From positions 60,698,001-60,762,000 of the forward strand of contig CM097886.1 of NCBI GenBank assembly GCA_044892525.1: 64,000 nucleotides of DNA, written 5' to 3'. This DNA comes from Schmidtea polychroa. Taxonomy: Eukaryota. This document shows, piece after piece, positions 3,991-63,709 of this stretch. The notes under the pieces are model-generated. The model did no database searches. It saw only the letters and a program-made list of their open reading frames with translations, and was not told the DNA's origin. Position 1 is the stretch's first letter. The number at the start of each line of letters is the position of its first letter. The position numbers were made by a program, and so were the translations under genes.

Positions 3991-5485
3991 AATGTACGCC
4001 CAATGCACTTAAAAAATCTGATTTCATTTTACATTTCCCATCATTTAAACAAAAATTAAAATTATTGAATACCCAAGGTTAAATTAAAACATCTAGAAAG
4101 TGAAAGAATAGTAGCGATTAATAATGACCTCTGCTACTGATTTGATTTAATGAAATAATTTTCATAATGATGTCCATTTTTGTAACTGTTGAATCAAATT
4201 AAATGAAACTAAATATATATTATTTGTTAAATAAACAAAACTGTAGGGAATCGCGTAAAATGGCCGCCAAACATTACAATTAAAATAATATCACAAATCC
4301 ATTTAGTCATATGTTGTGATCTTAATCAACTGTTCGTGGCGACCATCTTTGAAATAGAACAATATTTTCTATTTGATTCGACTCTGGAATCGGTTTTAGA
4401 TTCACAATTTATTTTTCATTTGACATTGAGGAGATAATCTTTAATAAACTCATTGCAGGTATTTATTTTATTTCATTAAATTACTTTTTAAAATTATTAT
4501 TTTGATCCAATTTGATCTGTTTTCATGTTTTGATGATATTTCGTTTATTTTCATTTTGACAAAAGATGGAAAATTTAATTCCAGTCAACAAAAATTTCAG
4601 GTTTGTATTTATCAATCGTTATTTATTATCAAAATGAAAATAAATGTAATCTCATTTTAAAATTATATATCAAATGTTTTTTAAAAAATTCTTGAGATAC
4701 AAAGATATTTTTTATTTATTAATTTAGTAATAAAAATGATATTTAATAATTTTAAAAACTTAAGTTATTTAGTATTGACGGTTAGAATAATTTATTTTTA
4801 TATTTTTTAATTATGTTTTAATAATGTTAATTTAAAATTTTTTAAATTAATTAAAGCTATTAAGAATGTTAGTGGTATCTTCGACTAATCAGGACCAAGT
4901 TTTACACAGTTACTCTTAAGGAAAATTAGAAATAGATGACTGGAAGACAAGACCAAGAGATCTCAAAAATTTCCACTCGAAATGTTTTTCTAGCAATGTA
5001 ACTTGTGCAATATCTTTTGGTTTGAAAATTTCAATAAACATCTTGTAAAATTTAATTTTTGCATATTATAATTACTTCAAATAAGGAAATTGTTTAAATT
5101 AATTAAGACCGTAAAAACCACTTTTTTCTTTTAGTGAATAGTTGAAATATCCTTATTATTATTTTAATTATTATTTTAAATATTATTTTATTATTAAATA
5201 TAATTAAATTGTAATTATTTGAATTTTTAATTTTCAATCATTCAGCAACCCCTCCAGCATCGACTCACGAACCCCATTTTTGAGGTCACTGCTTTTAATG
5301 GGCAAAAGCCGTTAGAAATAAAATTAATCGATAATTTTCGAAATTTTCAAGAAAAATATAAAATCTTACAAATAAAAATATTTTGGCTATATTTAATATT
5401 TAAATAATTAATTTTCGTTTTTCAAAAAAAAATAGAAAAAGCCATTGATTAAAAAAAAAATTTTGATCAACTTAAACATCATGTG

Positions 5486-5487
<2 letters not shown>

Positions 5488-5541
<54 letters not shown>

Positions 5542-5550
5542 AATAATAAT
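5488..5550. repeat. (ATT)n/(AAT)n microsatellite
   Basis: Direct reading of the sequence. Confidence 0.95.
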
Positions 5551-5586
5551 GATAATATTATTTTTATAAATTTTACTTTTCAGATA

Positions 5587-5814
5587 ATGGTGGCCAATGA
5601 ATTTTTTAGTCTAATTAATCGGCTCAATGCTGTCCACAATTATGGACTGGAAGACTTGGCAGATAAAATGAGTTCCATTTTTAGTGTACTGATTCTGTCA
5701 ATATGCGTTTCGATAGTGACAATTAAGTCCTACGTTATCAAACCCATCTCCTGCTATTTAAGTACGGGGCCTTCTGGAGGGAACTTTCAGGATTATATAG
5801 AAAATTATTGCTGG
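5587..5814 (+). CDS. inx: Innexin, coding exon 1 (76 codons)
   Basis: MVANEFFSLI...EDLADKMSSIFSVLIL...KPISCY...IENYCW is a flatworm-type innexin N-terminus with TM1 and first-loop cysteines. Donor GTGAAT at 5815 (phase 0). Acceptor ttttcAG ends 3 nt before the ATG. Confidence 0.92.
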
Positions 5815-7887
5815 GTGAATTTATTAGTCTGCTCTCAATTATTTATTTGTGTAGAACTCATTTTACAAAAATATTCATCAGCTCTGAATTTAAGGATCAA
5901 ATTTGAATTTCATATAATTTATTTTAATATTTATTCTAAAATGTGTGCAATAAGTTGATATTGTAATTTGCACTTTAGCTTCACAGGAAATATGTCCCGC
6001 ATAAAATAAAAGTGGAATATGAATAAATTAAAAATAAAAAAGAATAATAGATTTTTATAAAATTATTAATATCCAACCGATATATTGTTTCTTTCGGTGC
6101 ATAGAATTTGCAATAGAATGAATATTTCTAAGATTTTTAGTTAGAAAGTATTTATCCCAAATCCAGCATCAGAAGGACATAAATTCGAGACATACAATGG
6201 CATATTTTCATGACTCTTCCTCTTTCCTGTCGCCTCTTATCATCCTAGTTGTAACTTATTGTATTACCAATTAAACATATATTATTTTTCTTTTAATATA
6301 TAATAGTTTCTATGGTATTTCAATGCCATTTCTTCCATGGTTACCAATATATTTCATCGATTTTTTCAATTATTAATTTTTTTGTTGATTTAAATAAAAT
6401 AATAAACACTCAGTATCTCTAATTCCTTGTGTTCTGTGATAATAAATTATTGACATGTTACGATTTTGTGCAATTGAATTGTTTTATTAAATAGATTATT
6501 GTCTCTTCGAGATTTTGCAAAATAATAACATTATCAACATTTCATATCAGCCAAATGATTTCGGTGATTATTAAGATGCTATTCTCTTTGTTTAAAACTT
6601 TTTCAATATATGAAATGATTTTTCAAATTTCTTTTCTCACAATTATTTCTTTTGTCCTAACTTTAGTTTCTCTTTTGTTTCCTATATGAGGCTAAAATCT
6701 GATTTATTATGTCACTTTTCTTGTTATATTTGAACTATTGCTATAAATAATGGATTTAGGCTGAAATAATTTCAGACAATCTTCTAGTAATAGATCTCTC
6801 GGTTTTCATCAGAAAATAAACTTAAATTAATTAATAATCATTATGGTTTAAATTTTAAAATATTGCCATTGATCATGTTTTTATTATAATGGCCCTCAAA
6901 ATTCCAATTTTTTATTTTTTCGCTTGTTTTTTTCGGGTCTTTCGCTCAGTTAAAATCCGAAAAAATAATCATTTATTGATTTTCTACAGAATCACACTTA
7001 TCTCTTTTTCTTATCTGATTATGCACTTTTTTAATCCTGCTCTATTTAATTTCTTTACATTTTCACATCTATTTCATTTGGTTTCCATTCAATTTTAATG
7101 TAAAATAATTTCAATTTTTCCACTAACCAAAATTTTAATTTTAATTTAATTTAAAAATTATTATAGAAAGACTTAAGTGACTTGACATCTTTTTACTAAA
7201 TATTTTCGATTATTGTTGATTTTTAGATTTTTTTTACCTAAAAATAATTTATTAAAACATAAAATATGACATATGCCTATCTAATTGTATGAAATGTCAT
7301 TCTCCTAATTTTACTTTTGTTACCATATCATATGTTAGATATTAAAATAAAAAATGAATTTTTAATTAAATATGTAAGCTAGATGAACGAAGTGAGGCAA
7401 AATGATGATGCTCAAACAGTTAGTCTTTTAAAAATGTACCAATGTTAAAAGATGGAAAAGTATTACAGTTTTTAAAACTAAAATACAACATAATTGGAAA
7501 TAATAGGTATAGAATAAATATACATGTGGACGATAACGAATCAAACAACTATTGGTGACAATCAATTGATGATGGTAATGACAATGTGACCTCGATATGA
7601 TAACGACATTGTGATTTGATAATAATGACAATTTTTTCTATTTTATTTTATGTAGCCTTGTTTGGATTTTTGTTTTTATATATATTGCATTTATGCAAAA
7701 ACCCTTAAATTTTAAAGGGAACCCGCTTAATTAGAAAAATACTTAATAATACATTTTTTAATTAAAGATTTTGTATTTCCATAAAAGGCTAAAACAAAAT
7801 AATTTTTATTGACGCTAGGCGTTATTGATTTCAAAAAAAATGTTTTAGTACAATTGAATCCGCATGTGCAAAAACAATCTTATAATA

Positions 7888-8819: not shown

Positions 8820-8867
8820 GTGATTTTGCATTAGATATATGTGTGTGACCTGCCACTTAATATTTAG

Positions 8868-9865
8868 ATTATTACCAATGGGTCCCTTTTATTCTTGGTT
8901 TGCAATGTATTATGTTTTACATTCCAAAATTAATATGGCAGATGTTTTGCTTCAATCAAGCAGGAACAAATCTTGATACAATTATTAAATTATCAATGAA
9001 AATGGCGGAAATACCGATTAGTGAAAGGCGAGCGGAAAACGAGAACATTGCAAAAATTATTGAGAACATGCTAGTTCTCCACAGGGACTACCGAAACAAT
9101 AAAATGGCGAACATTCGGCGATCCATGTTTAGTAAGTGCAGTTTATTCATGAGTAGTAAACGATTGGGAACGATGCTTGTGTTTTCGTATTTTTTAACAA
9201 AATTGTTATATCTAACCAATGGGATCGGGCAGCTGTTTATGATTCAATCCATTTTGGGATTTTACAATTACCTACCGACCTTTGGATCGCATCTTTTCTG
9301 GTACATTCTATCAGGAACTGAATTGGAAACTCAAAACTATTTCCCAAGAGTGGTATTTTGTTATTTGAAAAGAATCCGCCACGTTGGTGCACACAATAAC
9401 TACGTAGCTCAATGCGTCCTCCCAGTGAATATGTTAAATGAGAAAATTTATACATTTCTATGGTGTTGGATCTTACTGGTGGCATTTGTTACATTTATTA
9501 GCATACCTCTTTGGATTCATAGACTGTACAGAACCGATGTCAGAGAAAATTACATTGGAAACTTTCTGCAAATGCTCAATTCATATGATGAACAGAAAAA
9601 GCCGTTAATACACAAGTTTATCAATGACTTTCTCAGGCACGATGGATTGTTTTTGTTGCGCATGATTTCAAACAATGCCGGCGACTTAATCGCTGCCTAT
9701 TTGGTAAACAATTTGTGGGAGATTTATTTAAATAAATATCAAAACAGAAATTTGAAGAAGGATATTTTTTCAGTGTCAAATCAATTGAAAATAGACGAAG
9801 CAAATAACTCAAGTTCTAATAGCCAAAACCTTTACCAAGGTTCACCTATCATGAATTATCTGTGA
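8868..9865 (+). CDS. inx: Innexin, coding exon 3 (spliced protein about 437 aa)
   Basis: After a 48-bp intron (8820-8867, containing an in-frame TGA) the frame reads N-YYQWVPFILGLQCIMFYIP...FPRVVFC...QCVLPVNMLNEKIYTFLW...FLRHDGLFLLRMI, all innexin hallmark motifs. Stop TGA at 9863-9865. Confidence 0.95.
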
Positions 9866-10147: not shown

Positions 10148-10690
10148 TTAGTCGGAATCATTATTCTCATCCTTACAATTGTTACAAACCATCTCAACTG
10201 AAGAATGGTTCTTGCATGTAAAGGACTGGCAACGGCAACACTTCATTGATGCTGAGGATCTTTTCTTATCCACTGCACATAACCGACAAACACCGCGTTT
10301 TGGAAGGCTTCTGTTTTCTTCTTCTGTTATCGGTTCAACTTCCCGACTGTAATTCACTTTGAGAAAAGCAGTGATATCTTGCGGTAGATGTTTGACATTT
10401 GATCTAAAGATAAAATGCTCTTTCATCATAGTCAATGCCAAACTTTTTAGAAAAATCCTTCGATGCTTTGGAGCCTTTCCTGGACAAGCAAATTTATATA
10501 AAATTTGAGCATTTATGGCTCCAATATTCAAAATAGTGTAGAAATACGTAGGAAAACGTCTAAAACAAAAACAAAAATACATTTAGCTACAAAAGAAACA
10601 ATATAAATGAGAAATAAATAGTAAGAAAGTAGTTTGTTTAATATACTTTCACTTTAAGGCGCGTGTCGTAAAATTTACGCTCAACGGAAA
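10148..10690 (-). mobile_element. piggyBac transposase C-terminal remnant
   Basis: FYTILNIGAINAQILY...RRIFLKSLALTMMKEH...RGVCRLC...KCCRCQSFTCKNH...CNNC is the PGBD-type C-terminus with its Cys-rich domain. A possible terminal motif (gtcgtaaaatttacg) lies at 10665-10679. Confidence 0.8.
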
Positions 10691-10712
10691 TTTAAAATGG
10701 TTTTATTTGTCA

Positions 10713-10960
10713 TCAATCCCATATTTTTTCAAAAGATTCGTTCTCGTTTAAGGTTATTTTGTTTAACGTTATGAAAACTTGGAACGCATCTATCACAGTA
10801 TTAGGGGGAACCACACTTCCATCTTCAATAATATTGTTTCGAAGACATGCTTCTTGCATATTAATCATTTGAACTATTTGTTTTTGTCTATTATCAATCA
10901 ATTTAAACACAATTAATTAACTTGATTAATTACCTTAATAAAAATTCCAGAATTTCTTCG
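10713..10960 (-). pseudogene. Unknown ORF remnant immediately downstream of the TBP-like gene
   Basis: ORF-track fragments (MISYPITDEEILEFLLR*; FKLIDNRQKQIVQMINMQEACLRNNII...). No family recognised. Confidence 0.3.
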
Positions 10961-11430
10961 TCTGTTATAGGATATGAAATCATTGAATTTATAAAATTAT
11001 GAACTTTTTGGACTTGATTGAAATAATCTAAATTTTTAATTCTTAATATTACTACTTTGCCACTTCTAAAACACATTGGCACAAAAAGGGTTGTACTTGA
11101 GGGTTCGGAAAGCTGGAAATATTTCAGGTACATTGTAGCAATTGGTTTTCATCAACAAGACATTTAAATCAATAGAAGACGCAATCTATCTAAGGTTAAT
11201 GTAATTGATTGAATTTGTAATTCTTAATCTGATACTTGAGATCTCCTTCTTGTAATAGTTTCTTACATCCCATTACCCTATATTTCCCCGCTCTTGAAGA
11301 ATAGGATTGGACATTTTCCGATTCTGTCCACAACATGTTGAGGTTTACCTGTCGGGAACTTTATTCCTTCTACTAAACATCTTCCTCTATAATCGATATT
11401 TCCTCTTATTTTTGATATTACTCTAATTAT
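10960..11430 (-). pseudogene. TATA-binding-protein-like (TBP-fold) pseudogene
   Basis: Manual reconstruction across several single-base frameshifts: ...GKPQHVVDRIGKCPILFFKSGKYRVMGCKK...KIQSITLTLDRLRL-IDLNVLLMKTNCYNVPEIFPAFRTLKYNPFCANVFRSGKVVILRIKN. This parallels both TBP repeats (TALIFSSGKMVCTGAK; KIQNMVGSCDVKFPIRL; YEPELFPGL; VLLIFVSGKVVLTGAK). Confidence 0.75.
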
Positions 11431-11469
11431 AAACAAATAAAATAATTTAATTAAAATATAATTAAGAAA

Positions 11470-11662
11470 TGATGCAATATATCAAATTGTAGGACCTAGT
11501 GGTAGTGGAAAAACTTTATTTGTATATAATTTATTACAATAAAATTAATTAAAATTTATTACCATAAAGGTGCAGATGAAGAACACGGTTTGACTCAAAA
11601 CAGTTTCTGTAAATTAAAAATGACAATAATTAAAGGATTTGATAAGAATTGGTCATCTAGAT
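11470..11662 (+). pseudogene. Maverick packaging ATPase (A32/FtsK-like), N-terminal part
   Basis: DAIYQIVGPSGSGKTLFVYNLL with Walker A at 11492-11515. Ends ...NWSSR at the hAT insertion site. Confidence 0.85.
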
Positions 11663-12220
11663 CAGTGTTTCTCAAAATGGGCCCCAGGGCCCACATGTGA
11701 ACTTGAGTAAAAATATTGTGGACCTAGAGAATGAATTTATCCCGTGGTGGGCCGGAAAAATTTAATTTTTGAAATATTATTAAATTTTGGAGTATGGAAA
11801 GAAGAACTGTCGTAAATTTCTTCTGAAATTTACGACAGCTCTTCTATCATTTAACCTAAATTTTGTTAAATATTATTAAATTTTTAAATATATTACAATT
11901 ACTATTAAATTTTTAATTTATACATCAAGTTTGAACAAAGTTTGACAAAATAAAATGATTTTTTAAATTATTTTGTGAAGCCTAACTGTTTTTCAAACTT
12001 GACGTATAAATTAAAAATTTATTTATTTTATCATTTGCTGTCGTTTTCTTATATTTCAGTTATGTCACTTGTAAAAGAAAAAAAAGAGGAAGATAACGAG
12101 AAGCTATCAAAATGATATTTTTGATTTTTGGTTTCTAACCTTTAAGCATCAGTTCTGATAAACTAGAATGTGTTGAATTTGGTTTAATTATGACAAACGA
12201 TTCAATGAAAAAATCTAAAA
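11663..12220 (+). mobile_element. Charlie/Buster-type hAT, 5-prime end, copy 1
   Basis: Starts CAGTGTTTCTCAAAATGGGCCCCAGGGCCCAC directly after ATCTAGAT (an NTCTAGAN-type target). Highly similar to 18856-19160. Encodes a degenerate transposase N-terminus. Confidence 0.85.
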
Positions 12221-12500
12221 ACATCAATATCTTTACTGATTCATAGTCAAGTTTTTTAATAAAGACAATGTCAATTGAAAAGAAATCAGTTGTGAAAATA
12301 GAAAAAAGTTCTCATAAAAATAATAAAATTGTGAAAAAGCAAGGACTTGCATACGAAACATATTTAAAAAGTACGAAAATAACACAAATCGTCGAAAAAA
12401 GACACAAAAAAAGCAAAAATCAGAGTGATCAGATTGCGATCATTCGACCAGTCACAAAGAAAAGAAAAAAAATAAATTTAAAATAAAAAAAAAGAATTAA
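12221..12500 (+). repeat. Dispersed repeat, copy B (inverted relative to copy A)
   Basis: acatcaatatctttactgattcatagtcaagttttttaataaagacaatgtcaattgaaaagaaatcagt is shared with copy A. Both copies produce spurious ORFs starting MSIEKKSV. Confidence 0.65.
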
Positions 12501-13249
12501 AACAAAAAATGAAATAGATCAATCAGATTGATTTGAATCTAAAATGAAAATAACAACAATAAAAACGATCAAAAACATACATGATCGATTCTGATTGGTC
12601 AAATACATTCAAAAAATAGTATATAAGGAGTAATCTCACCACCTTTTATCACTTCTAGAAATTTTCATCTTTTGTAATTTATGATGTATATTAAAATTTA
12701 CATTTGATCATGATTTGTTCTTACTCTTAATTAATTATTTGTTTATTATTCAGGATTTTATGTTTTGTTACAAATCAGGTCTTCTAAATACTATTGCAAT
12801 TATGATGATAGGTATAGTCGATCAGGGAGCTCTTTTTGTCAGCGAGTCAGGGAACATTTAATGTATCCCTACCTCGCTGACAGGAGACGATTTCGATCCT
12901 ACATCAGATGATCGTGCTAAAGTTCTCAAAATAGAGACTATGTGCGATTACTCTCTGACCTTTTTATGTATTATTTATCGCCATTCCATATCACCAAATT
13001 CTACCATTATAAGCCATAAAAAATAACGATAAATCAGTATCGTAACTCCATAGAATTATTAGAGCTCAAATCGTTTTCCACTTAAAATCAAAGAATTTAG
13101 TGTAGTTAAAATTATAATTTATCTACCACTCTGCCGAACACATTTTGAAACTAAAAAATAATAATCAAAGATTTTTTTCTGATTTATTTAATGATTTTCT
13201 CAAATCGTATAAGACCACCCCGTCATCCGGTATAAATAAAAATTGACCT

Positions 13250-13740
13250 AACAGTGAATTCCACCAGGGACGGGCAGATCCATCCACAATAGTGTTGGCG
13301 CTTAGGAGGTGTGCCGTTTAAATGTTCTAGGGTTACTTATGGATTTTGAATCGACTCCTTCCTAAACACTTTCATGATTATTTTACTTTATACCACCTGC
13401 GTACCCATGGTAACAACCATGTTGGTGATGTACACAATGGCTGAAAATCAATTAACAGGTGAGATCCAATACTAGAACTACTCCTCATCGCATTTTCATT
13501 TTCGGGTTCTGGACTGCCAATAGAAGGTCTTACGTCACTGTTTGTTCTTTATCTCTTTTTAGACTATCTTCCATATTCATCTAATTATGGTCCTCCTTAC
13601 TGGATGTTTTCCAATGTTATTTTCGAAAGTTTTGCACAGGGATCCGCCCTTATTTCCCAGTTCATGAATGTTGTCCTATATATTTTTTACAATAATCGAG
13701 GTTATTGGGTTTGCTTTTCGAAAATTTTAGCATGGATATG
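13250..13740 (-). repeat. Unclassified interspersed repeat, copy 1
   Basis: Reverse complement aligns with about 50440-50830 (gacgtaagaccttctat.ggcagtc.agaacccgaaaa...gtgtaca..accaacatggt.gt..ccatgggtac). Confidence 0.75.
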
Positions 13741-15374
13741 CATATATTTCTAATTCTAACCTAAATTGATTCTAATTACTAGATGATTTTCATATACCGC
13801 ATAAAACTAAGTCTTCTCTATTTTTACTCAAAATCTACCTCATTTTTATAATTACCAACCTAATCCGATAAACTCAATAAAAAGGTGTCAGTTGTTAGAA
13901 ATAGATAATAAAAAGAAAAACCAAAAAATGTTAAATCCAATGTGAAAAATTTATTTACTTAAACATTATTGCATGAACAAAAATTTGTTTATAAAAAATA
14001 AACATACCACAGTTGCATAAAATTCATAGGAACCGAAAACTGAGAGCAAAAATTTGTATCTTAAAACAAGTTTTTAAGTTAAGTTTAGTTAAGTTTTTCA
14101 AATGAATTTTCCGTCGGTATTTATACTGATTTTGATTGTACGCCTACGCATTATCTTTTACTAATTCCAATTGGAATGTGGGTAATTTTTAATTACTTTT
14201 TTTTAAATTTTTTTAATTACACATGAGTGTATGTGTTTCATATTTAATTTAATTGATTGATTTAAACAATCGAATTATTTAAGCAATTTTATTTTTTTTT
14301 ACTTTTAGTTCTTCATCAATTTTAATGGAAATTTTTAATTTTAATTTTGAATCTATTTATAAAATTTTTCGTGCGTAAATACGAGCCATAACATTCCTAA
14401 TTAATTTGATTATGGTCTTTCGTATGTAAATACGACCAATAATCATTCTTAATTTTTAATATGATCAATTGTTTATTTTATTTATTATTATTTTATTTTA
14501 TAGTTGGCAGATTTTTCGAATGTGTTATTTCTCTCTTAACTATGTTGGTGATTGCAACTTCTTGTGTTCCTTTATTTGATTATACGTGTTTTATTTATTC
14601 TCAATGTGTTGTGTACTTTACTTTATACTATTTGGTGTATAATTATAAATTTCAATTCAAGTTTTTATGCTATGTATTTCCTACTCATTAAAACAAGGTC
14701 TCAATTTTTGGCTCTAGTCCAACACTAGGATAAGGAATGTGTCGAATAAAACATACTAAAGTCACGTGATCAAAAGATATAGCTGTAACAATTTTTGACG
14801 GAAAATCCGTTAGAAAGAACGCTATCTCCCATCGGATATGGAAATTTCGGAGGTGGAAAGAAGGTAGAGTAAGGCAATTGCAAACTGTCCGTTAAATCCC
14901 AGTTTCTCGTGTTCGGATAAGTACGCGCTTATGAATGTGGTCAATCAAAAAGTGTTCCGACTTTAGTATTGTCGGGACAACCTTATTGAGGAGAGCTGGA
15001 TTCAATATGCTTTGATACAAGAGTGTGCTGCATGTGATTTTTTTATTTTTGTTATTTTTATTATTTATTATTCTGAGTAATTAACCAAGATAGAAAATTA
15101 AAATTTAAAAGAAAAAATCAAAAATCAATAAAAAATTAAGAAATCAAGGCAGAAAAATATGGATAATAACCAAGCAATATTGCTAAGATTGGAATATACT
15201 AATAAAATACATTTATGAATTTATGAAGCTATGTATGCTATTTATGAATTGAAATTGAAGGTTTAATTTTTTTGTTGTTCTATAATAAAACATTGTAAAC
15301 ATTTATATTATTATTTTTTTAACGAAATTGATATTAATTCTAATTGTTAATCATATAGTTAATAGCGGCATACA

Positions 15375-15495
15375 CACAACTTAGATACACACTCACCCCA
15401 ATTGTCCCAATACAAGTTTTAAAAGAGACTCTGTTGGGGCCTACAAATTTTCTCATTTTATTGACTAACATTATTATTATAACACACATCATCAG
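15375..15495 (+). repeat. Unclassified repeat, related to 21290-21410
   Basis: Shared pattern atacac.cacccaat..gtccc..tacaag/cacaga..tttta.a.gagactctgttggg..cta.caaat.tt. Confidence 0.55.
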
Positions 15496-15809
15496 CTTAT
15501 CCATAACGAAGATACAATATAACTGGAATCAGGAGCAAAAATATACAAAATACACTGGAGAAAATTTTTTTATCAAACACTATCACTTCAGATATATCTA
15601 ATTTAGAGGTATAAAGAATAGTGGCACTTTTGACTGAACACAGTAAGCTATATCCTTGATTAAACTAATTTTATTTAGAACATAAACAAACTTTACCAAC
15701 TTATGTAAAAAACACAAACAACCCCTTTCGGCAAGAAAATAACCAAATATTCATTGGATTCACAAACATAAATGAAGAAAATACTCCATTAACGAACGTC
15801 AACACCAAC

Positions 15810-16121
15810 CCTCAGAATATTTCCCTCCAGACATTTTCCCCTTGTCATCCCCTCTGTCATTCTCCCACTGGATATTTGATTGCTTATTTCTAGAATTATT
15901 ATTTCGATTATGTCATAAAATAATTTTTTTGGCTTTATATAAAAGTGGAGATGGAGAGGAGAGACTTGGTGTCAAATAACAATTTGAATTTATTTACATA
16001 AATATTTATTAATAAATTTATTTAAATAATACTTTATTGAGTAGAAAACCTGAAATTATTATATAAATGATTGTCAGAAATGTCAAGGGGGAAATATCCA
16101 AGGAGGAAATATCCTAGACTC
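15810..16121. mobile_element. Old MITE-like element with degenerate inverted ends
   Basis: Left end gaatatttccctccagacattttccccttgtca; reverse complement of right end ggatatttcctccttggatatttcccccttgaca. No TSD identified. Confidence 0.4.
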
Positions 16122-16379
16122 GTGGTATGATTGATTTTTGTACTGTTTTTTGGTGCTGTAGATTTTGGGATTAATTTCTTCGTTGATTTGATCTGCTATT
16201 TCCGCTTATGTTTTGATGTCTACCCAACAGGAAAAGTTTCATATTAAAACCCATCGAACAAGGAAGCTAATTCGAAAAATAGAAAAAGTGTGAAAAAATA
16301 AACGAAACTTTGTAGGTAGTTGTTCTCCAAAATTTTTAATTTGTTTGCAATATTGCAATGCAAAAAAACCGGGACAATA

Positions 16380-17830
16380 GAGCGTCCCGAAGACCCCTTT
16401 CGGGACACCGGGACAATGATCTCAAAACCGCGACGTCTGGCAACCCTAATACATACCAAACTGCAGCGAAATATTGGCACCTTTAAGCGAACTAATCAAA
16501 ACAAAAAGAAATATGGAAGTTGACTGGACAGAAAAATCAATCAGAAATTTCGAAATAGCTAAAGAAAGCTTATCCCGAGCAACACTGCTGGGATACCCGA
16601 ATCCGGAATTAGATTACAATTTAGCAACAGATTGTTCGGGTTTCGCAATAGGAGCAACACTATACCAAGAAAACGAGTTCGGTAAACAACCGATCGGGTT
16701 TTTTTCAAAAAAAATAAAAACACACCAAACACGGTATTCAACTTTCGACCGGGAACTCCTTGCAATACATGATGCCATAAAAAACTTCCAACACTTACTG
16801 GAAGGCCGAAATTTCAAAACCTTCACGATGTCCATCGAAACCAAACAAAAATAATAAAATAAAAAAGACGAAACCCTCAAAGAATTACCAACGAAACATA
16901 GCCTGAAACTGAAAAAAACCTACGAAGTCTGGTACGATGTCAGAAACGAAAATTCCCCAATAATCTTACTAACAATAGAATCTAGAAACGCATGTATTTC
17001 AAAAGCCATAACTTCAGCCACCCAGGAACCAGAGACAAGTACGAAATAATCCATAATAAATACGTATGGCCGAATATGAGAACAGAAATGAAAAACTATG
17101 TAAAATGTGCAAAAACTGACAGATCAACAAAACATCAAAATAGCACAAAAAGTAAATTTTCCAATGACTCAACAATTCGAAATGATACATATCGATATAG
17201 TAAGACCACTAGCACCTAAAAACGGCTATCAATACCTGCTTACCATAATATAAAAGAAAACAAAACTGGTTCGAAGTTGTCCCTCTCAAAAAAATAACAG
17301 CAAAAAATATATGCAACAACCTAGAATTCAATTGGATAGCCCGCTACGGTCAACCAAAAACCAGTCACTGACCAAGGAAGACAATAAAAAACAATAAAAA
17401 ATACAACGTCAAAAGAAATAGAACAACTGCCTACAATCCTCAGACAAACGAGGAAATCGAAAGGTTACATAGAACAATTAAAGAAAGCATACGAACAAAA
17501 GCTGAAGACAGAAATTGGTTAGAACAATTACCAACAATCCTACTGGGGCTAAGAAATACTCATAATTCAATAAATAGCGAAAGCCCAGTATATAAAGTTT
17601 TCGGCAGAGGAACAAATTTACCTTCATTTAACACAAATTGGGAAAACAACAATAAAACAATCAACAACCCAGAGTAACGAATTCGATCCAAAAAAAAATA
17701 AAACCGTAAAATAGTTTTAACCACAGACTGTGTTAGTAAAAAAAACCATATACAAAAGGTTTTCAATCAAAGAACCAAAGTCCATACAAATTACTCGAAT
17801 TAAATAAAAACGTGGCCACGATATTAAAAA
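16380..17830 (+). mobile_element. Ty3/Gypsy LTR retrotransposon pol remnant (RT connection/RNase H and integrase)
   Basis: DCSGFAIGATLYQ...PIGFFSKK...RYSTFDRELLAIHDAIKNFQHLLEGRNF (RNase H). HNFSHPG...YVWPNMRTEMKNYVKC (integrase Zn finger). IDIVRPL, RTTAYNPQTN..IERLHRTIK and W.EQLPTILLGLRN (integrase core). Many stops and frameshifts. Confidence 0.9.
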
Positions 17831-18588
17831 ATAACAAGGAAATGCGAATAACTATTCAGATTAAAACACTACCACCAAACAAAACAATAGCACTACAACA
17901 AACAACAATAATCAAACAAGGCACATTTTATTCAACAAACATGAACCATCACACCCCATACACAAAATACATACAGAAAGTTTTTAAATTTTATTTTCTA
18001 ACTTGGTTTATATTTCTCTATTGGTTCTTAAATCACAATTAAATAAGGCCGATATCAAGAAGTATAAAAATAATGTTTTAGAATCTAATTAATTTAAACC
18101 TAATTATATAATAGCATTATAAAAGTATTTATACTAATTCAAATTTGAAAATAAGATAATTAAAATTTTTATTTAGTATTCAAAATGCTTAAATTGCGTT
18201 GGGAGAATATTAAATCGGGTCTTCATAATAATTCTACTTTCTGAATTTTGATCTTCAGGTGAGTATTTTGCAGGATGAGCACACACAGTTGGTTTCATGT
18301 TTGGATCAAATGTCTATAAAATATTTGAATTCGGATTTTATAAATAACATAAATTACTTTTATTGTATAAACTCTTTCATTATTTTCATTTAAATAAAAT
18401 CTAAGATTTAATGCCATGTCTATTTTAGCGTGTTGTTTTTCAATTAAAAATAATATATTAAATAAACAAATATTTTAATATTTAATTAGCATATTTTAGA
18501 AATTACAGTTTTGAAATATATCTAAATTATATATTTTTTTAAATTAATTTAATTAAGAGATATTTGTATTTAGATAAAATCATATTAA

Positions 18589-18809
18589 CCCTTTCCACTC
18601 ATTGACAAAAAAATTTTGCCAATTTTTAAGCCTAACTCATGATAAGAATGTTTGCCATATTCTTAATATCTTTCTTACTTCTATCCAATGGCAAGAAAAC
18701 AAACCATTATTAAAAGTGTTCCAACATAGATTCTTGACATCCAACATAATTTTCTAAATTAAATGAGTAGAAGAAACAAAAATGGGGAAATTAATGTGAA
18801 TGAAAAGGA
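18589..18809. mobile_element. piggyBac-like MITE
   Basis: Flanked by TTAA (18585-18588, 18810-18813). Ends CCCTTTCCACTCA and (reverse complement) TCCTTTTCATTCA, 10/13 identical. Confidence 0.5.
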
Positions 18810-18855
18810 TTAAGATATTTCAATATTTATTTTTCTGTATATTCTAAATATAATT

Positions 18856-19700
18856 CAATGTTTCTCAACGTGGGCCCCAGGGCCCATATGTGGGCTTGAG
18901 TAAAAATATTGTGGGCCTGGAGAATGAATTGGTGAAGCTTATCTGTTTTTCAAACTTGACGTATAAATTAAAAATTTATTTCTTTTATCATTTGCTGTCG
19001 TTTTCTTATATTTCAGTTATGTCACAATTAAAAGAAAAAAAAGAGGAAGATAACGAGAAGCTATCAAAATGATATTTTTGGTTTTTGGTTTCTAACCTTT
19101 AAGCATCAGTTCTGATAAACCAGAATGTGTTGAATTTGGTTTAATTATGACAAACTATTCAATGAAAAAATCTAAAATATTGTCACATCAGAAATTAAAA
19201 CATCCTGGATCAGTTGGAAGAGAACGTAATTATTTTGTCAAAAAACCACAAGAACGAATAAAGAAAAACTCGACAGTGACCTTAACTTCTTTTTATGAAA
19301 AAAGTAAGTAAACGGAACAACAAAGCCGACAGAGTAAGTTATGTTGTGAGTGAATTGATTGCCAAAGCGGGATAACCTCACATTATTGGTAAACGACTTG
19401 TAAAGCCAGACTTAATAGCTTGCACCAATGAGATGTAAGGATAAGATGCGGCAAATATTTTCAACATGATCCCACTTTCTGATGATACAATTCAAATAAG
19501 ACAGGATGAAATGGCGAAAAACTTGGAAGATCAATTGATAGAAAAATTAAAAGTTACAAAGTTCTCATTGCAAATCTACAATAAATAATTTGTCTCTTAA
19601 TTTGCCTTATGTTCGTTATGCTGATGACGCTGTTATTAATGAAGAAATCCTATTTTTAAAGAAACTTATAAACACGCGTAGTGAAACTATTTTTGGAGTG
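18856..19700 (+). mobile_element. Charlie/Buster-type hAT, 5-prime end plus transposase remnant, copy 2
   Basis: Same terminus as copy 1 with an internal deletion of about 240 bp. Degenerate ZBED5/SCAND3-like motifs VSYVVSELIAKAG.PHIIG.RLVKP, IPLSDDTIQIRQDEMA.NLEDQLIEKLK and YVRY...INEEILFLK. Confidence 0.85.
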
Positions 19701-19708
19701 GTCTAGAT

Positions 19709-20090
19709 TCTAGATTACGTCAAAATGATTCTATTATTATCGATGATTTGTATCAGGAAGCAAATAAAGAAAAATATTTTAATAATTTATTCACAAAAGC
19801 AATAGACATTGTGGAATTACAGTTATTTTCATAACACAAAACTTTTATAATCATAGCGGAAATCACAGAACACTGATTATTTAAAATAATTTATTTTCAA
19901 AAATCCACGAAATCAAACCATTATTGATTTTCTTGCAAGACAAACTTATCCTAATGACAGAAAACCTTTAAAATAATCATTCCAAGTTGCTACAAAAGTT
20001 CGCCATGGATATTCATTCTTAGACTTTAGACAACAATGTCTTGATGATATGTGTATTAGAACAGACATTTTTATTGTAAATGGTGTTACG
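19709..20090 (+). pseudogene. Maverick packaging ATPase, C-terminal part
   Basis: SRLRQNDSIIIDDLYQEA (Walker B)...LFTK...RHCGITVIFITQNFY...KNPRNQTIIDFLARQTYP...ATKVRHGYSFLDFRQQCLDDMCIRTDIF, a typical Polinton ATPase C-terminal half. Confidence 0.88.
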
Positions 20091-20279
20091 ATTTATATAA
20101 TCAATTGAACAAAAATAATTAAACTAAATATGGCATTTAAAAAGTATTTGTTAAAAATTCTATCATTCCAATTGTTTCCAAAAATATTAATAAAAAATCA
20201 AAATGTCGTAAGAAACTAAGAAAAATAAGATGAGAATGAAAAGTAAGAAACCTACTAAGAAATGGATTAAATTATAAAC

Positions 20280-20520
20280 AATCTATCCAGTTAAATATTG
20301 ATAGTAATAATAAAATTTGAACGAATTGTACCATATTTTAATACCTTTATAAAGGCTTCAAATACAAAACGAATTTCGATTTTACAAGCTTTTCAATCTT
20401 TTGTTATTAACGATTTACTTGAAGTTTTTGTAAATGTTGTTCGTGGTAATGTAAATATTACTAAAATTAATGCGAATTCAGTATTGTAAAGACATAAAAG
20501 GTCACTGTAGTAAATTGTCA
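20280..20520 (+). pseudogene. Conserved small Maverick ORF remnant
   Basis: RISILQAFQSFVINDLLEVFVNVVRGNVNITKINANSVL*RHKRSL resembles the recurrent Maverick small-protein pattern (IL..A....I..ICE...N.L.GN.P......L.RHK..L). Confidence 0.55.
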
Positions 20521-20629
20521 AATTTTTTTATTATTGTCATTTTACATTACAAAGTAGTTACGGACAAGTAAATCCCCTTCAATTTAATCGTTGCGTGTAT
20601 TATACAAACTATATAGTTTTGATTCTCTA

Positions 20630-20887
20630 TACTGCCCTCCTTATCAAATAGACCGTAACTGCAAAAATACACTTAGGAGATAAATAACAAAACGTGTTTT
20701 CAATTCTGCCAACCAGTTAACCTAAACCAATCATCCATTTATATTTGTCCATTTATATTCATCCATTTATAGATACGGTCTTATCGCTAAGCAGAATGAA
20801 GGTTAATTGCAACTGCATACAGTTGACGCCTCTAACTCGATTTTTGTAGTTTTGTCAGTTACGGTCTATTTGATAAGGAGGGCAGTA
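20630..20887. mobile_element. Tc1/mariner-type MITE inserted in the Maverick
   Basis: Perfect TIR of about 32 bp (TACTGCCCTCCTTATCAAATAGACCGTAACTG), flanked by TA on both sides. Confidence 0.88.
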
Positions 20888-21539
20888 TAGTAAATAATCG
20901 CTATAGAGAATTGATCACAAATTAAAAATTAATAAAAAAATCAACAAGTACTTAGCAGCAGAAAATCCTAAAGAAGTTTCTAAAAAAATTTCTCAGTTAT
21001 CAGATTTGGAATTTAAATTATAATAACTTCTCAATCCTCTATCCTATTCAAATCCGTACGGATACTTAATACTCAAGTATAATAAATTTCGAGCTGACTA
21101 TTCCCACAAAATCATATAAATATTAAAAACTAGTTGTAAATATTTTATAGCCAGAATTCAAAAGGCTTATCACATAAAAGAGGTTGAACAATTGATTTAT
21201 AAAGTTTTTTTTATTTGTGTTAATAAAAGTTAATATCACTTATTTAATATCACTCTTTGTGTTAATATCTCTTATTTTTAGTTAATATACATACACGCAC
21301 CCAATCAGTCCCGACACAGATATTTTATAGGAGACTCTGTTGGGTTCTAACAAATCTTCCCATTACACACTAATACAAATTAATACACATACTATAATAA
21401 ACATCATAATTACCATTTGAAATACATAATAATCACTTTTATCGTTAATCGATACTAAAAATAGGCGTCTGACGCGAAAGATATATAAACAAAAAAGGAT
21501 AGGTTCTTGGGTACAATACATCCAATAGTCTTATAAGCA

Positions 21540-22096
21540 ATTAGTGCAATTTCATCATTAAGATCTTAATTTGCACCAAAAGTTCATTATCAACTTTCGA
21601 ACTTTAAGAGAAAGATTGAAAAAAATATTTTTTATATAATCCAATAATACTTGGATAAATGTTTTGCCAAAAATCTTTTTCAGTTACAATCATTCACCAC
21701 CCAGAGGATTAAAAGGACAAAGACCTGTTGATTTTACGGGAAACACATTAAGAAAGGCAGAAAAAAATCAATAAACCAAAATACTTGGTAGGTGATCATG
21801 TAAGAATTAGTAAAATCAATTCTTCTCCATCCATCAAAAATTTTGATAATAATTAGAATGATGAAGTATATCAAATTTTGAAAGTCGATACAAAGCAAAA
21901 TCCTGTCATGTATGTGATAGTTGATCATGAAAATGTTAAATTCTATGAACAAGAACTCAAAGTCATTCCTGCCTCTACTGTATTCAGAATTCAAAAGATT
22001 TTAAAAATCAAAAAGGATGGGAAATATAAACAATGCTATAAAAGGTATGGTTATGAAACTCCGACTTGGGTATCTGAAAATCAATTGATTAAATAA
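21540..22096 (+). pseudogene. Maverick retroviral-like integrase C-terminal half with chromodomain-like tail
   Basis: RTLRERLKK..., NTWINVLPKIFFSYNHS, KPKYLVGDHVRISK, DEVYQILKVDTKQNPVMY, KFYEQELKVI...FRIQKILK...YGYETPTWVSENQL follow the Polinton c-integrase pattern. Confidence 0.88.
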
Positions 22097-22199
22097 ATAT
22101 TATGAAAGAAAACCAGTAAGATAAATTATACATCAATACTTTATTTGAATTAGAAGGATGTTTAATAACAATTAATCCGTCACTTTTAAAGATTTAAAA

Positions 22200-22585
22200 A
22201 TTCAAAATAATGAATTGATTAAAATAACTCTTGCTGATAACATTTCAAAAACAACCTTTGAATATTGGGATTAAAACAAATATTTACTGAGAAAGATATT
22301 GTCAGTACAGAAATATCGAAATTATTTCATTATCATTAACACATTTTTATTTATTCAACTATTAATTAACTAAGAGTTCCATTATTGAAATCTTATGTAA
22401 TTAAAAATATGAGTAGGGGGAAGTTGTGTGATTAGAAATGAAGAATCCAATGTACCTACCGATTTCTATTTCTTCAATAAGCAACATTGAAATCAATATA
22501 TGCGACGATAGTGGTAAAAAATAGAAAATTTAGTAAAGATACAAAAACAAATTTATCATTGGATTTTAGGAAAGTAAATGAATAA
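22200..22585 (+). pseudogene. Penton/minor capsid-like gene 1 (C-terminal part recognisable)
   Basis: KNPMYLPISISSISNIEINICDDSGKK...FSKDTKTNLSLDFRKVNE*. The stop overlaps the ATG of the next gene (aaATGaaTAA). Confidence 0.7.
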
Positions 22586-23572
22586 AAAAGATTTTTATGT
22601 AAATTTGTCCTTTTACTCATCCAAATAATGAAGCTAGTAAATTTAATGTCGAATTTCAAAAATCCTATTTACTTGAATAGAAAATGGGAAGTGACTCTCA
22701 TGGACTTTACCTTGGTGTATAATAATTTTGCTTTCTATAATAATTCAAATGTTAAATACAGTAAAGGTGTATTACATACAAGTTATGAATACTTTTATTT
22801 TAACCTACCAAAAATGAATATACAATCAGTCACGACTCTCCATTTTATTTAATATTTATTGATGGAAATATTTTGAACATTAATTGCAAATATTTTCCTT
22901 TTAAAGTAGAATCTGATAGTAATAAAGAAGCTCAAAAATTTTTACTGAAAAAGAAATAAATTTCAATCAAAATTTGAATCAAATAATTATTCCTCCAAAT
23001 AATTGGAAAATACAGTTTGATACAATTCGATTAACTATACATTATTTTTATTATATCAAGTATACAGATACATTTGAAGAAAATTTAAATATTACAGAAT
23101 TTTCTCAAATAAATGATCAATTATTTACCTTTTATCCGCGTCCATTTAAATCTAATGAAATTTATAAAGCAAAAATTGTTAACATTGTATTGGAAGATGA
23201 TGTCAGTAAAGTTTAATTTAGTCAATTTTTGGAAAATAGTTTAGGATTATCAGAAGAAGCATATACAGACAAAATTATTATTGGATTAAAACAACCTGAA
23301 ATAAGGCAAAGTAATCAACAAATGATGACCTCTACGAATATCATTGAACCAATTTTTGTCGGGGATACTTTGGTTCCTCTATTGAAATTTATATGAGTAG
23401 AAAACATTAAAAAAAGACAATCTAGTTCAAATAATTGAAAAGAATCCAATGTATTTGCCGGTGTCAAAATCCATATAAAGAAATCAATATACGTGACGAT
23501 AGTGGAAAATTTTCATTTGGGAAAGAAGATAAAACATACTTAACATTACATTTTCGTAAAATAAATGCGTAA
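22578..23572 (+). pseudogene. Penton/minor capsid-like gene 2
   Basis: N-terminus MNKKDFYVNLS...HPNNEASKFNVEF.NPIYLNRKWEVTLMDF. C-terminus TSTNIIEPIFVGDTLVPLLKFI...KNPMYLPVSK...EINIRDDSG...TYLTLHFRKINA*. Confidence 0.85.
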
Positions 23573-23790
23573 TCCAGACATTGTAAATTTTTATTATAGT
23601 AACCAGTTTGGGGGGAGATTTACCATATTTTGTAGGTAAACAGTACGGAAACGGTTGGTTGAAGACAATAGGTAGATTTGCTCTTCTAAATCTTAGACGC
23701 ATTGGGAATTTTGGTATGAAAACAGCTAATAAATAATAATTCAAAAATCTTAACTGCTTTAAAATCAAATGCAATATCTGAAATTAAATA
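23565..23790 (+). pseudogene. QxGG-type basic core-like Maverick protein remnant
   Basis: With one frameshift in a G run: MRNPDIVNFYYSNQFGGDLPYFVGKQYGNGWLKTIGRFALLNLRRIGNFGMKTANK. The ATG overlaps the end of penton 2. Confidence 0.65.
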
Positions 23791-23924
23791 TTCATTACCT
23801 ATAGTGATACATCATTTACCCCAAGTAATTAATAAAGTATCTGACGTATTAAAAAATCACCATGAAAATGAACAAAAAGAACAAAAAAGATGAACACTTA
23901 ATCGACGAAATCTATAAAAAATTA

Positions 23925-26017
23925 TTATCGCTAAATCTGAATTATGTCTTTTCGATAGACCCTCTCCTCAAGCAGCAATTGAACACGGAGCATTTGAAGA
24001 TATTTACCGAAGGAGTTCAATTACAGATGCTGGTCCTTATGTGATTCAAATTGACATTAATGGATCGCAAACTAAATATTTAGATTTGAATGATATTTTA
24101 CTATATATTCATTTGAAAGTTGTTAATAATTTAGGCGAGAATATAACTGAATCTGATGTATCTGCAAATAATTTCTTCTTTCAAACACTTTAAAGATGTT
24201 GAATTAGTTTTTAATTCTATCAAGGTTGAAGAATCAAATAATTGATTTACTCACAAAGCATTAATTGAAACAATTATAAATTATAATAGAGATACTAAAC
24301 TAACATCTTTAGGAATGAGGTACAAAGAACATGATATTATGAGAAAAACATGGATTGAAAAATCAAAATCATTTTCTTTATGTTTTTCACTTCAATTTGA
24401 TTTCTTTGATCAACCGAAATATTTACTACCTGGTGTTAGTGTTCAAATTAAATTAACAAGATCAATTCCATCACTTAGTTTAACTTGCGAAAAATGGAAC
24501 CGAAAATAGTATTATTAGATGCAAAATTAATGGTTAGAAGATTTCGTTTTGGACCATCAGTTTTAGCTGGTCATTAAATTGGTCTCTCTATAAAAAATAC
24601 AATTTATCCTTTAAGAAGCAAGGAGGTTGTTGATTTCTCATTACCTCATGGCCCCCACATGGGGGAGGCTGACAAGGCTCTAGCCCTAGGGCCTGGGATT
24701 AGTGGGGCCCGCCGTGGCAGGTCGGTTAGCCAAATGAGATGAACATAAGACAGAAAGAAACTTATTAAATATTGACTTTTGTTTTGTACATATCAACTAA
24801 AATTTATTACCGCATTTTGCTATAGGCACATTATATTATTCCGCTAATCCTCTCATCATCGTGTTGGTGATTTATCTCCATTCGGACATTAATATATGCC
24901 GTATTGCCGATGGAAAACACTTGTCTGTATTGATACATTTAAAAAAAATTCAATCGCACGAAATCCTTCACCTTAAAAGTAATCACAAAACAGTTTTCGG
25001 AACTGAAAGAAGTCCGATTAAACTTCTGAATGCAATTTATGACAAAAAACTGCAAGGTATATTTGTTAATATCTGCTTCGTCATTAAACTGTTTTGTACC
25101 GTACCAGTTACGGTTTCTTCAGCTGAAAGATCATTCAGCAGGCTGGCAAATTCATTAAAAACATGGCAAAGAAGCACAACTAGTCAAGATCGACTCAATC
25201 ATCTAGCAATTTTAAGTATCGAAAATGATTTAGCAAAGAAAGTTGATTTTAATGATGTCATTGAAAAATCTGCATTGATAAAAGCTAGAAAATATAGTCT
25301 ACTTTGAGATAATTTTTGATATTATTGTATGTTTTTACCATAGTTTATGTTTTTTTAAAATGTAAAGCTACAGACTGTAGTTTATTTTTAATAAATTTTT
25401 AATGTTTCTTTCTTGCCATCATTTAATCCGCCCTATTTTATCCTAATTCCTGTAGAGCATCAAGCGGTATATAGTTTGGGGGCCCGCCGAAAATCCTGTC
25501 CTGGAGGTGTGGCGGCCATGCATTACCTATTGGTTCTTCCTCTTTTTATAAAGAAAAAATATTTGGAGATAGACGTTTACCTAATTTTATTCTTGTTGCA
25601 TTCCAATCTAGTAAAAGATTTAGTGGATCATTTTCAGAAACTATTTCATTATTTGATCACTTTAATGTTAAGTCAATAACTTTAAGTAAAGGAAGTGATT
25701 ATCGTGATAATTATAGTCCAGATTTTGAGAACAATGATTATAGTACAAGTTATATGCAATCAATTGTTAGAAATATGGAATATCTTAATAAAAATATGAA
25801 TTTTGGTATCAGTATGTCGGACTTTAAGAACAAATATCCATTCTTTACATTTGTATTGGCACCTGATTTCGATCATCAAAGTCAGTTACCCTAAATCGGA
25901 AATTTACGACTTGATATTAAATTTGCATCATCACTTGCTGAAGCTGTTTCTGTAATTATATATAGAGTTTTTGAAAAGGAAATTCAAATTACATCTACCC
26001 GTACAGTATTAGTTTGA
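23925..26017 (+). pseudogene. Maverick major capsid protein (double jelly-roll, PY-type), split by a hAT insertion
   Basis: KSELCLFDRPSPQAAIE...KYLDLNDILLYIHLKV; LQFDFFDQPKYLLPGVSVQIKLTR; IYPLRSKEVVDFSLP | IGSSSFYKEKIFGDRRLPNFILV...FFTFVLAPDF...GNLRLDIKFASSLAEAVSVIIY.VFEKEIQITSTRTVLV*. Confidence 0.9.
24647..25520 (+). mobile_element. Non-autonomous hAT element inserted in the capsid gene
   Basis: Perfect 8-bp TSD CATTACCT (24639-24646, 25521-25528). TIR CATGGCC(C/G)CC. ORF 24861-25307 carries the hAT dimerisation domain (TVPVTVSSAERSFSRL...QDRLNHLAILSIEND). Confidence 0.93.
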
Positions 26018-26099
26018 TCAAACCATATTATAAACCAAATGCAGAAATATTATTTGTCAATTATGAATTAAGAAATTTAATTAATTATTTAATTTTATT

Positions 26100-26222
26100 A
26101 ATATTGGTTCTATTCAGATACAAATTCCTTATTTAAATGCGAACAAAGATTTTATTGTAAATACTCAATTATCTCATCTCAATGATGAACATTGGCTTGC
26201 AAGTTATGTGAAACCTGACAAA

Positions 26223-26225
<3 letters not shown>
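26100..26225 (+). pseudogene. Adenain-like cysteine protease N-terminal remnant
   Basis: NKDFIVNTQLSHLNDEHWLASYVKP matches the IVNT......G.HW.A motif of Maverick proteases. It follows the capsid gene and is truncated at a (TA)n run. Confidence 0.65.
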
Positions 26226-26266
<41 letters not shown>

Positions 26267-26819
26267 TAATATGGTCTGTACAGATATTTCAAAGTTAACC
26301 TGTCCTTTAAGATGTAAATGTTGTCAAGAATATAAAAAGAAAGAAATAATACAAATTCTAGTTGCTCAATTAAGAAGAGCTTATTATAAGCAAATTAGTG
26401 ATGAAGAATAAACTTATTATTTTTTCTTTAATTGATATTATCCAAAAACAAATTATGTGATTCATTGTAGGCTTTTAAAGTTATACCTGACTCTTGGTGT
26501 TAAAAATATATATATAAACTCCAAGTGTTACAGCTTGTTAGGTGAATCAAAATGTCTAAAAGCTAAAAGGTTTCTTTAGAAGATATTAAATTGAAACATA
26601 AATCTTATTAGGATAATTTGTTTGTTAGTACCTAGTTGTAAGTAATTTGTGTCTGTTTGTTGAATTAATATTATTATTATTACTATTATTAATATTCACA
26701 AAAATTTATTTCATAAAACTTTGCTTTAAAAAAATCCTTTAAAAATTAATTCATAGAAAAATGCGCATTTAAAATTTCTTTACATTTTTAAAATTCTCAC
26801 AGGTCATAAGTTTTTCGAA

Positions 26820-53673: not shown

Positions 53674-53741
53674 TTGTTGCTGATATTTTTCTCGAAAATA
53701 TATAAAAATTAGATGAATTTGTGAGTTGAAATAGACAAATT

Positions 53742-53770
53742 TGTTGTCGTTGTCGTTGTCGTTGTTGTCG

Positions 53771-53807
<37 letters not shown>
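53742..53807. repeat. (GTT)n/(GTC)n microsatellite upstream of the Shaker start codon
   Basis: Direct reading of the sequence. Confidence 0.95.

Positions 53808-53809
<2 letters not shown>

Positions 53810-63466: not shown

Positions 63467-63709
<243 letters not shown>

Follow-up and report, generated by a model that had tools for sequence, protein, structure and literature searches.

Why should a gene with a TATA-binding-protein (TBP) fold lie head-to-head with the packaging ATPase of a Maverick element, and what might its product do there? The question is raised by one locus in a 64,000-nucleotide stretch of Schmidtea polychroa DNA (contig CM097886.1, positions 60,698,001 to 60,762,000; hereafter the window), for which an earlier note had proposed that a lineage of capsid-encoding endogenous viruses carries its own highly diverged, tail-less TBP, used to redirect or antagonise host transcription. 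We confirm that the window contains, at 10933-11409 on the minus strand, a TBP-fold gene that is dead in this copy and is conserved throughout one lineage of Mavericks/Polintons. We refer to this Maverick-encoded short TBP as vTBP.

The decayed vTBP gene and the Maverick around it

The window copy of vTBP has lost its start codon and carries several frame breaks, intact copies encoding 158 aa; alignment to an intact relative, to which its DNA is 80% identical, places indels near 11289, 11225, 11178-11186 and 11072. The four peptides first quoted for the gene lie on the minus strand in differing frames, and an intact natural vTBP recovers it by tblastn at 47% over query residues 4-157 (E 3e-31, window 11400-10936). 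The range originally given, 10930..11520, was too wide, as it also takes in the start of the ATPase, and the two starts are separated by about 50 bp rather than the proposed 100. The two genes are indeed both decayed: beside the lost start codon and indels of vTBP, the ATPase is broken and split by an 8-kb insertion. A Pfam scan of the window's own vTBP pieces matched no family; its intact relative matches TBP (PF00352; E 3.4e-16, 59.3 bits against a cut-off of 22.9) in one stretch, residues 64-130. Relative to a young copy the window gene shows 84 substitutions, 45 of them at third positions, from which we infer that it descends from an older functional subfamily.

A single decayed Maverick, holding vTBP, the split ATPase, PX, integrase, capsid genes and a likely protease remnant, extends from about 10806 to 26500, its gene remnants described below all lying on the plus strand. 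The 5' part of the broken A32-type packaging ATPase (11456..11662) matches the intact ATPase at 84-90%, the intact copy being recognised by Pfam as Pox_A32, and the equally broken 3' part (19694..20096) was placed by alignment to an intact copy. Between them lies the nested insertion (11663..19693; about 8 kb), with a near-perfect 8-bp duplication on its flanks; we take it to have a hAT-like terminus at its start and retrotransposon-like remnants inside. There follow an insertion-interrupted remnant of a PX / adenovirus protein X-like core protein (20310..21566; Adeno_PX by Pfam on the intact copy) and the 3' part of an integrase-chromodomain region (21597..22109; DNA 86% to the intact copy, rve and Chromo on a relative). 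Two gene remnants at 22118..23566 presumably encode minor capsid (penton-like) proteins, a label drawn from position and recall; these putative minor capsid genes had no Pfam match. A small conserved ORF remnant of about 120-130 aa (23565..23914) precedes the major capsid (double jelly-roll) remnant (23921..26014), which is interrupted at about 24652-25520 and was assigned by similarity to an intact copy, the Pfam DJR-like_dom match of the major capsid (E 2e-4) being below the cut-off. A likely adenain-type protease remnant (26085..26230) was recognised by eye and by position, relatives having Peptidase_C5 after the major capsid gene, and fragments resembling ORF115 and the pPolB C-terminal region (26274..26519) form the element's rearranged right end. 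The left end is abutted by what we take to be a piggyBac-like transposase C-terminal remnant (10148-10700).

A natural copy elsewhere in the genome, of about 14.6 kb, has terminal inverted repeats and pPolB; these features are shared with Mavericks/Polintons (adintoviruses), as are the A32 ATPase, the PX and capsid genes, the protease and an rve integrase that has a chromodomain. Beyond the element, the window presumably contains innexin-like host gene exons (5476-5958 and 8861-9865, from motifs), fragments of a non-LTR retrotransposon, with motifs of a reverse transcriptase and a restriction-like endonuclease, in an island richer in GC (30747-34994), two hAT-like transposase loci, one of them open over 622 aa, and a Tc1/mariner-like frame open over 370 aa (41145-43197, 46734-49263 and 60683-61795), a 541-aa Shaker-type potassium channel ORF (52234-53859, minus strand) and a histone H3 exon (63467-63709, plus strand).

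Copies, relatives and fold of vTBP

A DNA search of the genome with the window vTBP gave 757 candidates, the 40 scored being 79-100% identical, and a protein search gave 4206, among which 150 were scored: 85 were identical over all 158 residues and 149 were stop-free, so that the intact copies sought by the earlier note do exist. Many own-genome copies consist of an intact 158-aa ORF placed 50 bp head-to-head from a 207-aa A32-type ATPase. Four vTBP families, 52-64% identical, are present in the genome, and a fifth was also found. A Pfam TBP search yielded 2998 candidates; of the 30 loci fetched, ten represent six host TBP genes, which show two full repeats wherever these could be seen, and the other 20 are vTBP copies, every one of them (20/20) opposite an ATPase. 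The host set is made up of a canonical TBP and five divergent TBP paralogues (loci L122-L131), three of which have both repeats in one open frame (L125, L127 and L128). Many vTBP matches form inverted pairs 9-13 kb apart, and some Maverick copies are palindromic, with mirrored arms that meet at the major capsid gene and each carry vTBP and ATPase (G000:C2:165601000-165617000); the palindromes may have arisen in replication, or they may be artefacts of the assembly.

Other datasets contained 123 relatives among 140 candidates, mostly of 144-165 aa, and a profile search returned 62 representatives at E up to 1e-30; stand-alone vTBP ORFs measure about 145-170 aa. Gene neighbourhoods were taken from 80 JGI metagenome loci (83 found), of which 32 hold a Maverick hallmark gene, a figure that rises to 18/21 for loci of at least 4 kb. 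The proposal of a diverged, tail-less TBP carried by a capsid-encoding lineage is thus upheld, vTBP being a regular, multicopy and Maverick-linked gene. Its head-to-head arrangement with the ATPase holds for the window and for 26 of the 30 fetched own-genome loci, the window's included, but proved to be a local trait: among the 23 metagenomic loci with an ATPase, 21 have it co-directional with vTBP and two head-to-head, and we therefore rejected this order as a conserved regulatory feature. In IMG/VR the family alignment matched a single distant TBP of giant-virus type, and neither the ATPase nor the major capsid matched anything; GenBank phages had no vTBP match, and an ESM Atlas search with vTBP matched TBP clusters whose taxon records were too sparse to be of use. 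Accessory genes in related elements (loci L060:222-719, L083:1265-1807 and L095:5246-5659) include LRR and PLA2-like genes by Pfam and one that we take to be ubiquitin-conjugating-like.

The vTBP family is under purifying selection: dN/dS is 0.12-0.35 in 6/6 own-genome family pairs, for which dS is near saturation, and 0.13-0.35 in the eight unsaturated of nine metagenomic pairs above 60% identity, the least diverged of these giving 0.17 at a dS of 0.33. The phylogeny that had been called for, a quick tree of 60 rows, sets the 37 family rows on one side of a long branch (SH-aLRT 100, no bootstrap), apart from the host, archaeal and giant-virus-type TBPs sampled and without nesting among host paralogues. 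These data bear on whether vTBP is a captured host TBP retrocopy, carried as a functionless passenger. Such a capture would suit a dead window copy in a host with intronless TBP paralogues; identity to host TBPs is only 27-38% in partial alignments, however, and the long branch, dN/dS values well below 1 and the 123 close relatives in other datasets leave this explanation largely refuted, with hardly any probability. The earlier note had counted single-copy host genes, or retrocopies never linked to Maverick genes, as evidence against its proposal; the gene is multicopy, Maverick-linked and not a host retrocopy, so the proposal stands in this respect.

The lack of a significant TBP-fold match, which the earlier note had likewise counted against its proposal, was not borne out. 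An AlphaFold2 model of an intact copy (pLDDT 94.5, 100-sequence alignment) aligns to yeast TBP (VIA), residues 1-147 on 66-240, with Z 12.7, rmsd 2.5 and 145 aligned residues; Foldseek with this model matched TBPs (E 7e-9), and intact vTBP matches 35 solved sequences, all of them TBPs or TBP fusions. Both repeats claimed for the rebuilt gene are present in the beta-sheet saddle, but in the model repeat 1 comes without helices, consisting of four strands with no helix in residues 1-61, while repeat 2 is complete. Median repeat-1 spacings are 37 against a canonical 47 and 20 against 33 (about 10 and 13 residues shorter), and helix loss is not universal, near-canonical H2 spacing being retained in 7/100 members. 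Canonical TBPs have two complete repeats, each with H1 and H2, which vTBP does not; it is a member of the TBP superfamily (PF00352), not a canonical TBP. With cellular TBPs and their paralogues it shares the two-lobed saddle, three of the four kinking phenylalanines, N69, P191 and the C-lobe EPExFP stirrup, and it differs from them in an identity of about 28%, a shorter repeat 1 that lacks H1/H2 in the model, the missing N-terminal tail and polar replacements on the DNA face.

Residues were mapped from the 100-sequence alignment onto plant TBP in ungapped blocks, with yeast numbering taken from the structural ranges. Equivalents of yeast F116 (99/100), F190 (99/100), F207 (100/100) and N69 (99/100) are retained and P191 is also conserved; F99 is without a colinear equivalent, and F18 (91/100) may or may not replace it. 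Nearly fixed replacements V71N, V122R, T124M, N159S and V161T occupy positions that presumably face DNA. Fixed replacements are I194R (99), V203C (100) and L205N (100 of 100), and positions 194, 203 and 205 are those described as altering TBP specificity in the mutant TBPm3 (PMC1636458). This remodelling of the DNA face suggests another DNA preference than TATAWAWR, and loss of both repeat-1 helices and of a colinear F99 could weaken DNA bending. The TFIIB-contact glutamates are kept as E93 (yeast E186; 95 E and 5 D) and E95 (yeast E188; 99/100), the corresponding human residues E284/E286 being given as the TFIIB-binding signature in PMC7221094, which also describes how TFIIA, TAF1, Brf1/2, Mot1 and NC2 share a site, a basic patch located for the most part on helix H2 of the N-lobe. 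The vTBP family retains the TFIIB signature, and its H2 basic-patch region is mostly deleted.

A protein of this fold might also act as a DNA-binding factor in replication, integration or packaging, for example at terminal repeats, with the box described below serving another factor. In keeping with such a role, a conserved companion gene found at 26 loci, often beside vTBP (e.g. L050:1788-2138; L181:2048-2467), has the fold of T7 gp2.5/Enc34 single-strand DNA-binding proteins (a middling Z of 7.9, rmsd 2.9, 105 aligned), and TBP-like folds are also known in replication initiators (Z 6.6). It is made quite improbable by the retention of both TFIIB-contact glutamates and the TATA-kinking phenylalanines, and by the scanned cluster representatives (Pfam; ORFs found in three or more loci), among which there was no other conserved transcription factor. 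We had considered the companion gene as a partner factor of vTBP and rejected it as such on its fold; an ESM Atlas search with its ORF found nothing.

The box upstream of virion genes

We counted the motif ATAAACA at -15 to -80 from the ATG, which was chosen automatically, in sets of homologous genes thinned at 80% identity, with one distant NTPase locus dropped. This box precedes 21/23 ATPase, 9/10 PX, 7/7 major capsid and 9/16 minor capsid genes, and is rare or absent before the small pre-capsid ORF (1/6), integrase (3/14), ORF115 (0/3) and vTBP itself (0/55); for ATAAAC, the protease and pPolB gave 0/8 and 1/18. Shuffled controls had at most 4 boxes per class, and an unbiased scan returned ATAAACA as its top 7-mer (47/62, 1.8 expected), whereas the reverse strand of the virion-class upstream regions had it in 0/62. 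Because the upstream sets share ancestry, these counts are not independent. The distance from box to ATG is mostly 31-49 nt and in the virion classes never below 30, the spacing that a box at -30 from the start site would require. Overlapping starts or the automatic choice of ATG may explain some exceptions; seven of the 16 minor-capsid starts are without a box.

Three copies of TATAAACA are kept in the window, all on the plus strand: a putative late promoter box at 11428..11435, with the start of the decayed ATPase about 30 nt downstream, a second at 20273..20280, upstream of the PX gene remnant, and a third at 22025-22032, which precedes the minor capsid region and lies within the integrase remnant. 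The base before ATAAACA is T in 35 cases, C in 14, G in 3 and A in 1, and YATAAACA departs from the TATA consensus in its C at position 7 and a loose position 1. A deep clade has CATAAACA as its box.

The motif could be thought unrelated to vTBP, serving the upstream gene in polyadenylation or termination or arising merely from codon conservation, as it resembles AATAAA and in many instances lies at the 3' end of, or inside, the preceding gene. Yet in head-to-head elements it precedes the ATPase at a place where no gene comes to an end; it is preceded by A in only 1/53, and occurs in intergenic DNA as well as inside upstream genes, where its reading frame varies. Ahead of the major capsid gene, ATA-AAC stands in 7/7, though each codon is used only 32% of the time. 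We regard this origin of the box as very improbable.

Upstream regions of vTBP itself carry a canonical TATA in 25/55 and an initiator-like TCAYT in 28/55, spaced by 30-32 nt in 15 of 29 pairings, with CCAAT marginally enriched (14/55 against a shuffle maximum of 13). The youngest own-genome vTBP family has no canonical TATA just upstream of vTBP. In this family only 17-24 nt separate the vTBP ATG from the ATPase box, which is upstream of it and on the opposite strand (window 11410-11456; L023:1477-1526), the spacers of other families being longer; on this spacing one may speculate that vTBP, once bound, could shut its own promoter.

A second Maverick lineage in the same genome, with at least 296 ATPase matches, served as a control and, as one lineage, provides one independent observation. 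Unlike the vTBP lineage, it has neither vTBP nor the shared box: across eight regions the vTBP HMM matched nothing inside its copies, of which four have terminal repeats at their bounds, and its sole match fell in a neighbouring vTBP-type element; the box precedes 0/76 of its gene starts. ATAAACA does occur 9 nt before the ATG at 3/8 of its ATPase starts, outside the counted range. Copies of this lineage (L185-L186, L229-L243) have the major capsid in two ORFs in 7/7 cases where it was seen (possibly an intron). They also show a fusion of PLA2-like and integrase sequences, and many of their starts are preceded at about 20 nt by CCATTT/TCATTT.

It is also conceivable that a host factor reads the box, whether the canonical TBP, a divergent TBP paralogue or a forkhead protein, and that vTBP is a decoy which sequesters TFIIB or blocks host promoters. 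TATAAACA is one base off a canonical TATA box, five further host TBP paralogues exist, ATAAACA fits the forkhead consensus RYAAAYA, and vTBP has the conserved TFIIB stirrup that a decoy would have to possess. Against this, GTAAACA is found in 0/62 and ATAAATA in 5/62 of the virion-class upstream regions, compared with 47 for ATAAACA; the box keeps to a single strand and a single distance, differs in the deep clade and is missing from the TBP-less lineage of the same host, and a decoy leaves the fixed polar replacements on the DNA face unexplained. On balance we find this account unlikely.

A predicted early-to-late switch and its viral counterparts

The reading that we prefer, at a probability of roughly 0.7, is that vTBP is made early, under a promoter of host type, binds YATAAACA, recruits host TFIIB and Pol II, escapes N-lobe regulators and switches on the virion genes. 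Host TFIID would transcribe vTBP early; the protein would then bind its box and recruit TFIIB and Pol II via the retained C-lobe stirrup, and, without N-lobe helix H2, it would escape Mot1/BTAF1, NC2, TAF1, TFIIA and Brf. The predicted outcome is a one-protein early-to-late switch, in which binding, timing and recruitment are expectations from residues and motifs, and the tie between vTBP and box is one of co-occurrence. We think it rather probable that a large Maverick/adintovirus clade runs an early-late cascade via one minimal, re-specified TBP that plugs into host TFIIB-Pol II. As to the two roles suggested by the earlier note, the presence of a box that is specific to the lineage and stands upstream of virion genes lends indirect support to the redirecting of transcription; antagonising host transcription found no support here.

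Beta- and gamma-herpesviruses encode TBP mimics, EBV BcRF1 and CMV UL87 among them, and what vTBP appears to have in common with these is a TBP-like factor with a modified TATA-like box before virion genes, its spacing measured to the ATG. The herpesvirus proteins are large, act in a six-member complex, bind Pol II directly and read TATTWAA, whereas vTBP is a bare 145-160-aa TBP core with a TFIIB stirrup, tied to YATAAACA, and its function is predicted. No partners of the herpes-type six-subunit complex were found among the scanned vTBP neighbours, and the Foldseek match of vTBP to BcRF1 is weak (E 0.025). KSHV ORF24 is described as a viral TBP-like factor that works with host Pol II at late genes, whose starts have an altered TATA box some 30 nt upstream (PMC6541308); by analogy, vTBP may work like ORF24-type factors, without membership of that family.

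With the TBP-like proteins of NCLDVs (phycodnaviruses, mimiviruses, asfarvirus B263R-like), vTBP shares a virus-encoded TBP fold and a lost N-lobe regulatory signature, a loss suggested to let viral TBPs evade Mot1 (PMC7221094). The viral TBPs surveyed in that source diverged at TFIIB-contact positions and at the N-lobe patch, several of the viruses having a TFIIB gene themselves. By contrast, the vTBP family retains both glutamates, has no TFIIB or RNA polymerase among the genes scanned with Pfam (ORFs found in three or more loci), and does not group with the giant-virus-type TBPs sampled in the quick tree.

In the literature searched, a TBP-like gene of MELD/adinto-like viruses appears only in Starrett et al. 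2021 (PMC8502044, paper and preprint), where the Fig. 5 legend gives a 'TBP' label in the map of MELD virus, which has an adintovirus-like PolB. This is a legend entry only, the main text having no structure, distribution or promoter analysis of it, and the labelled gene may or may not belong to the vTBP family; one supplement of that paper has no TBP mention. The earlier note did not count TBP among the standard Maverick genes; for TBP-like genes in MELD/adinto-like viruses the legend sets a precedent. There is no TBP or TATA term in PMC11161782, 10.64898/2026.10.13.758929, 10.1101/2023.08.22.554363, PMC11131425 or PMC8097293; figures, bioRxiv supplements, subscription papers and Repbase reports may describe the gene.

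The timing of capsid genes in Mavericks, and the standing of these elements as real viruses, are questions that vTBP and a candidate cognate box make testable, in a system as small as a 158-aa protein and an 8-bp motif. With its N-lobe helices gone and the TBPm3 positions changed, vTBP is a natural test of TBP anatomy, and the box can aid virion-gene annotation in the vTBP clade. The switch, if true, would mean that the late-TBP strategy of herpesviruses had been invented a second time, independently; it would be strong evidence of scheduled virion building by Mavericks and a natural orthogonal TBP-promoter pair, and the hundreds of intact copies in this genome could then mis-activate host sites bearing the box.
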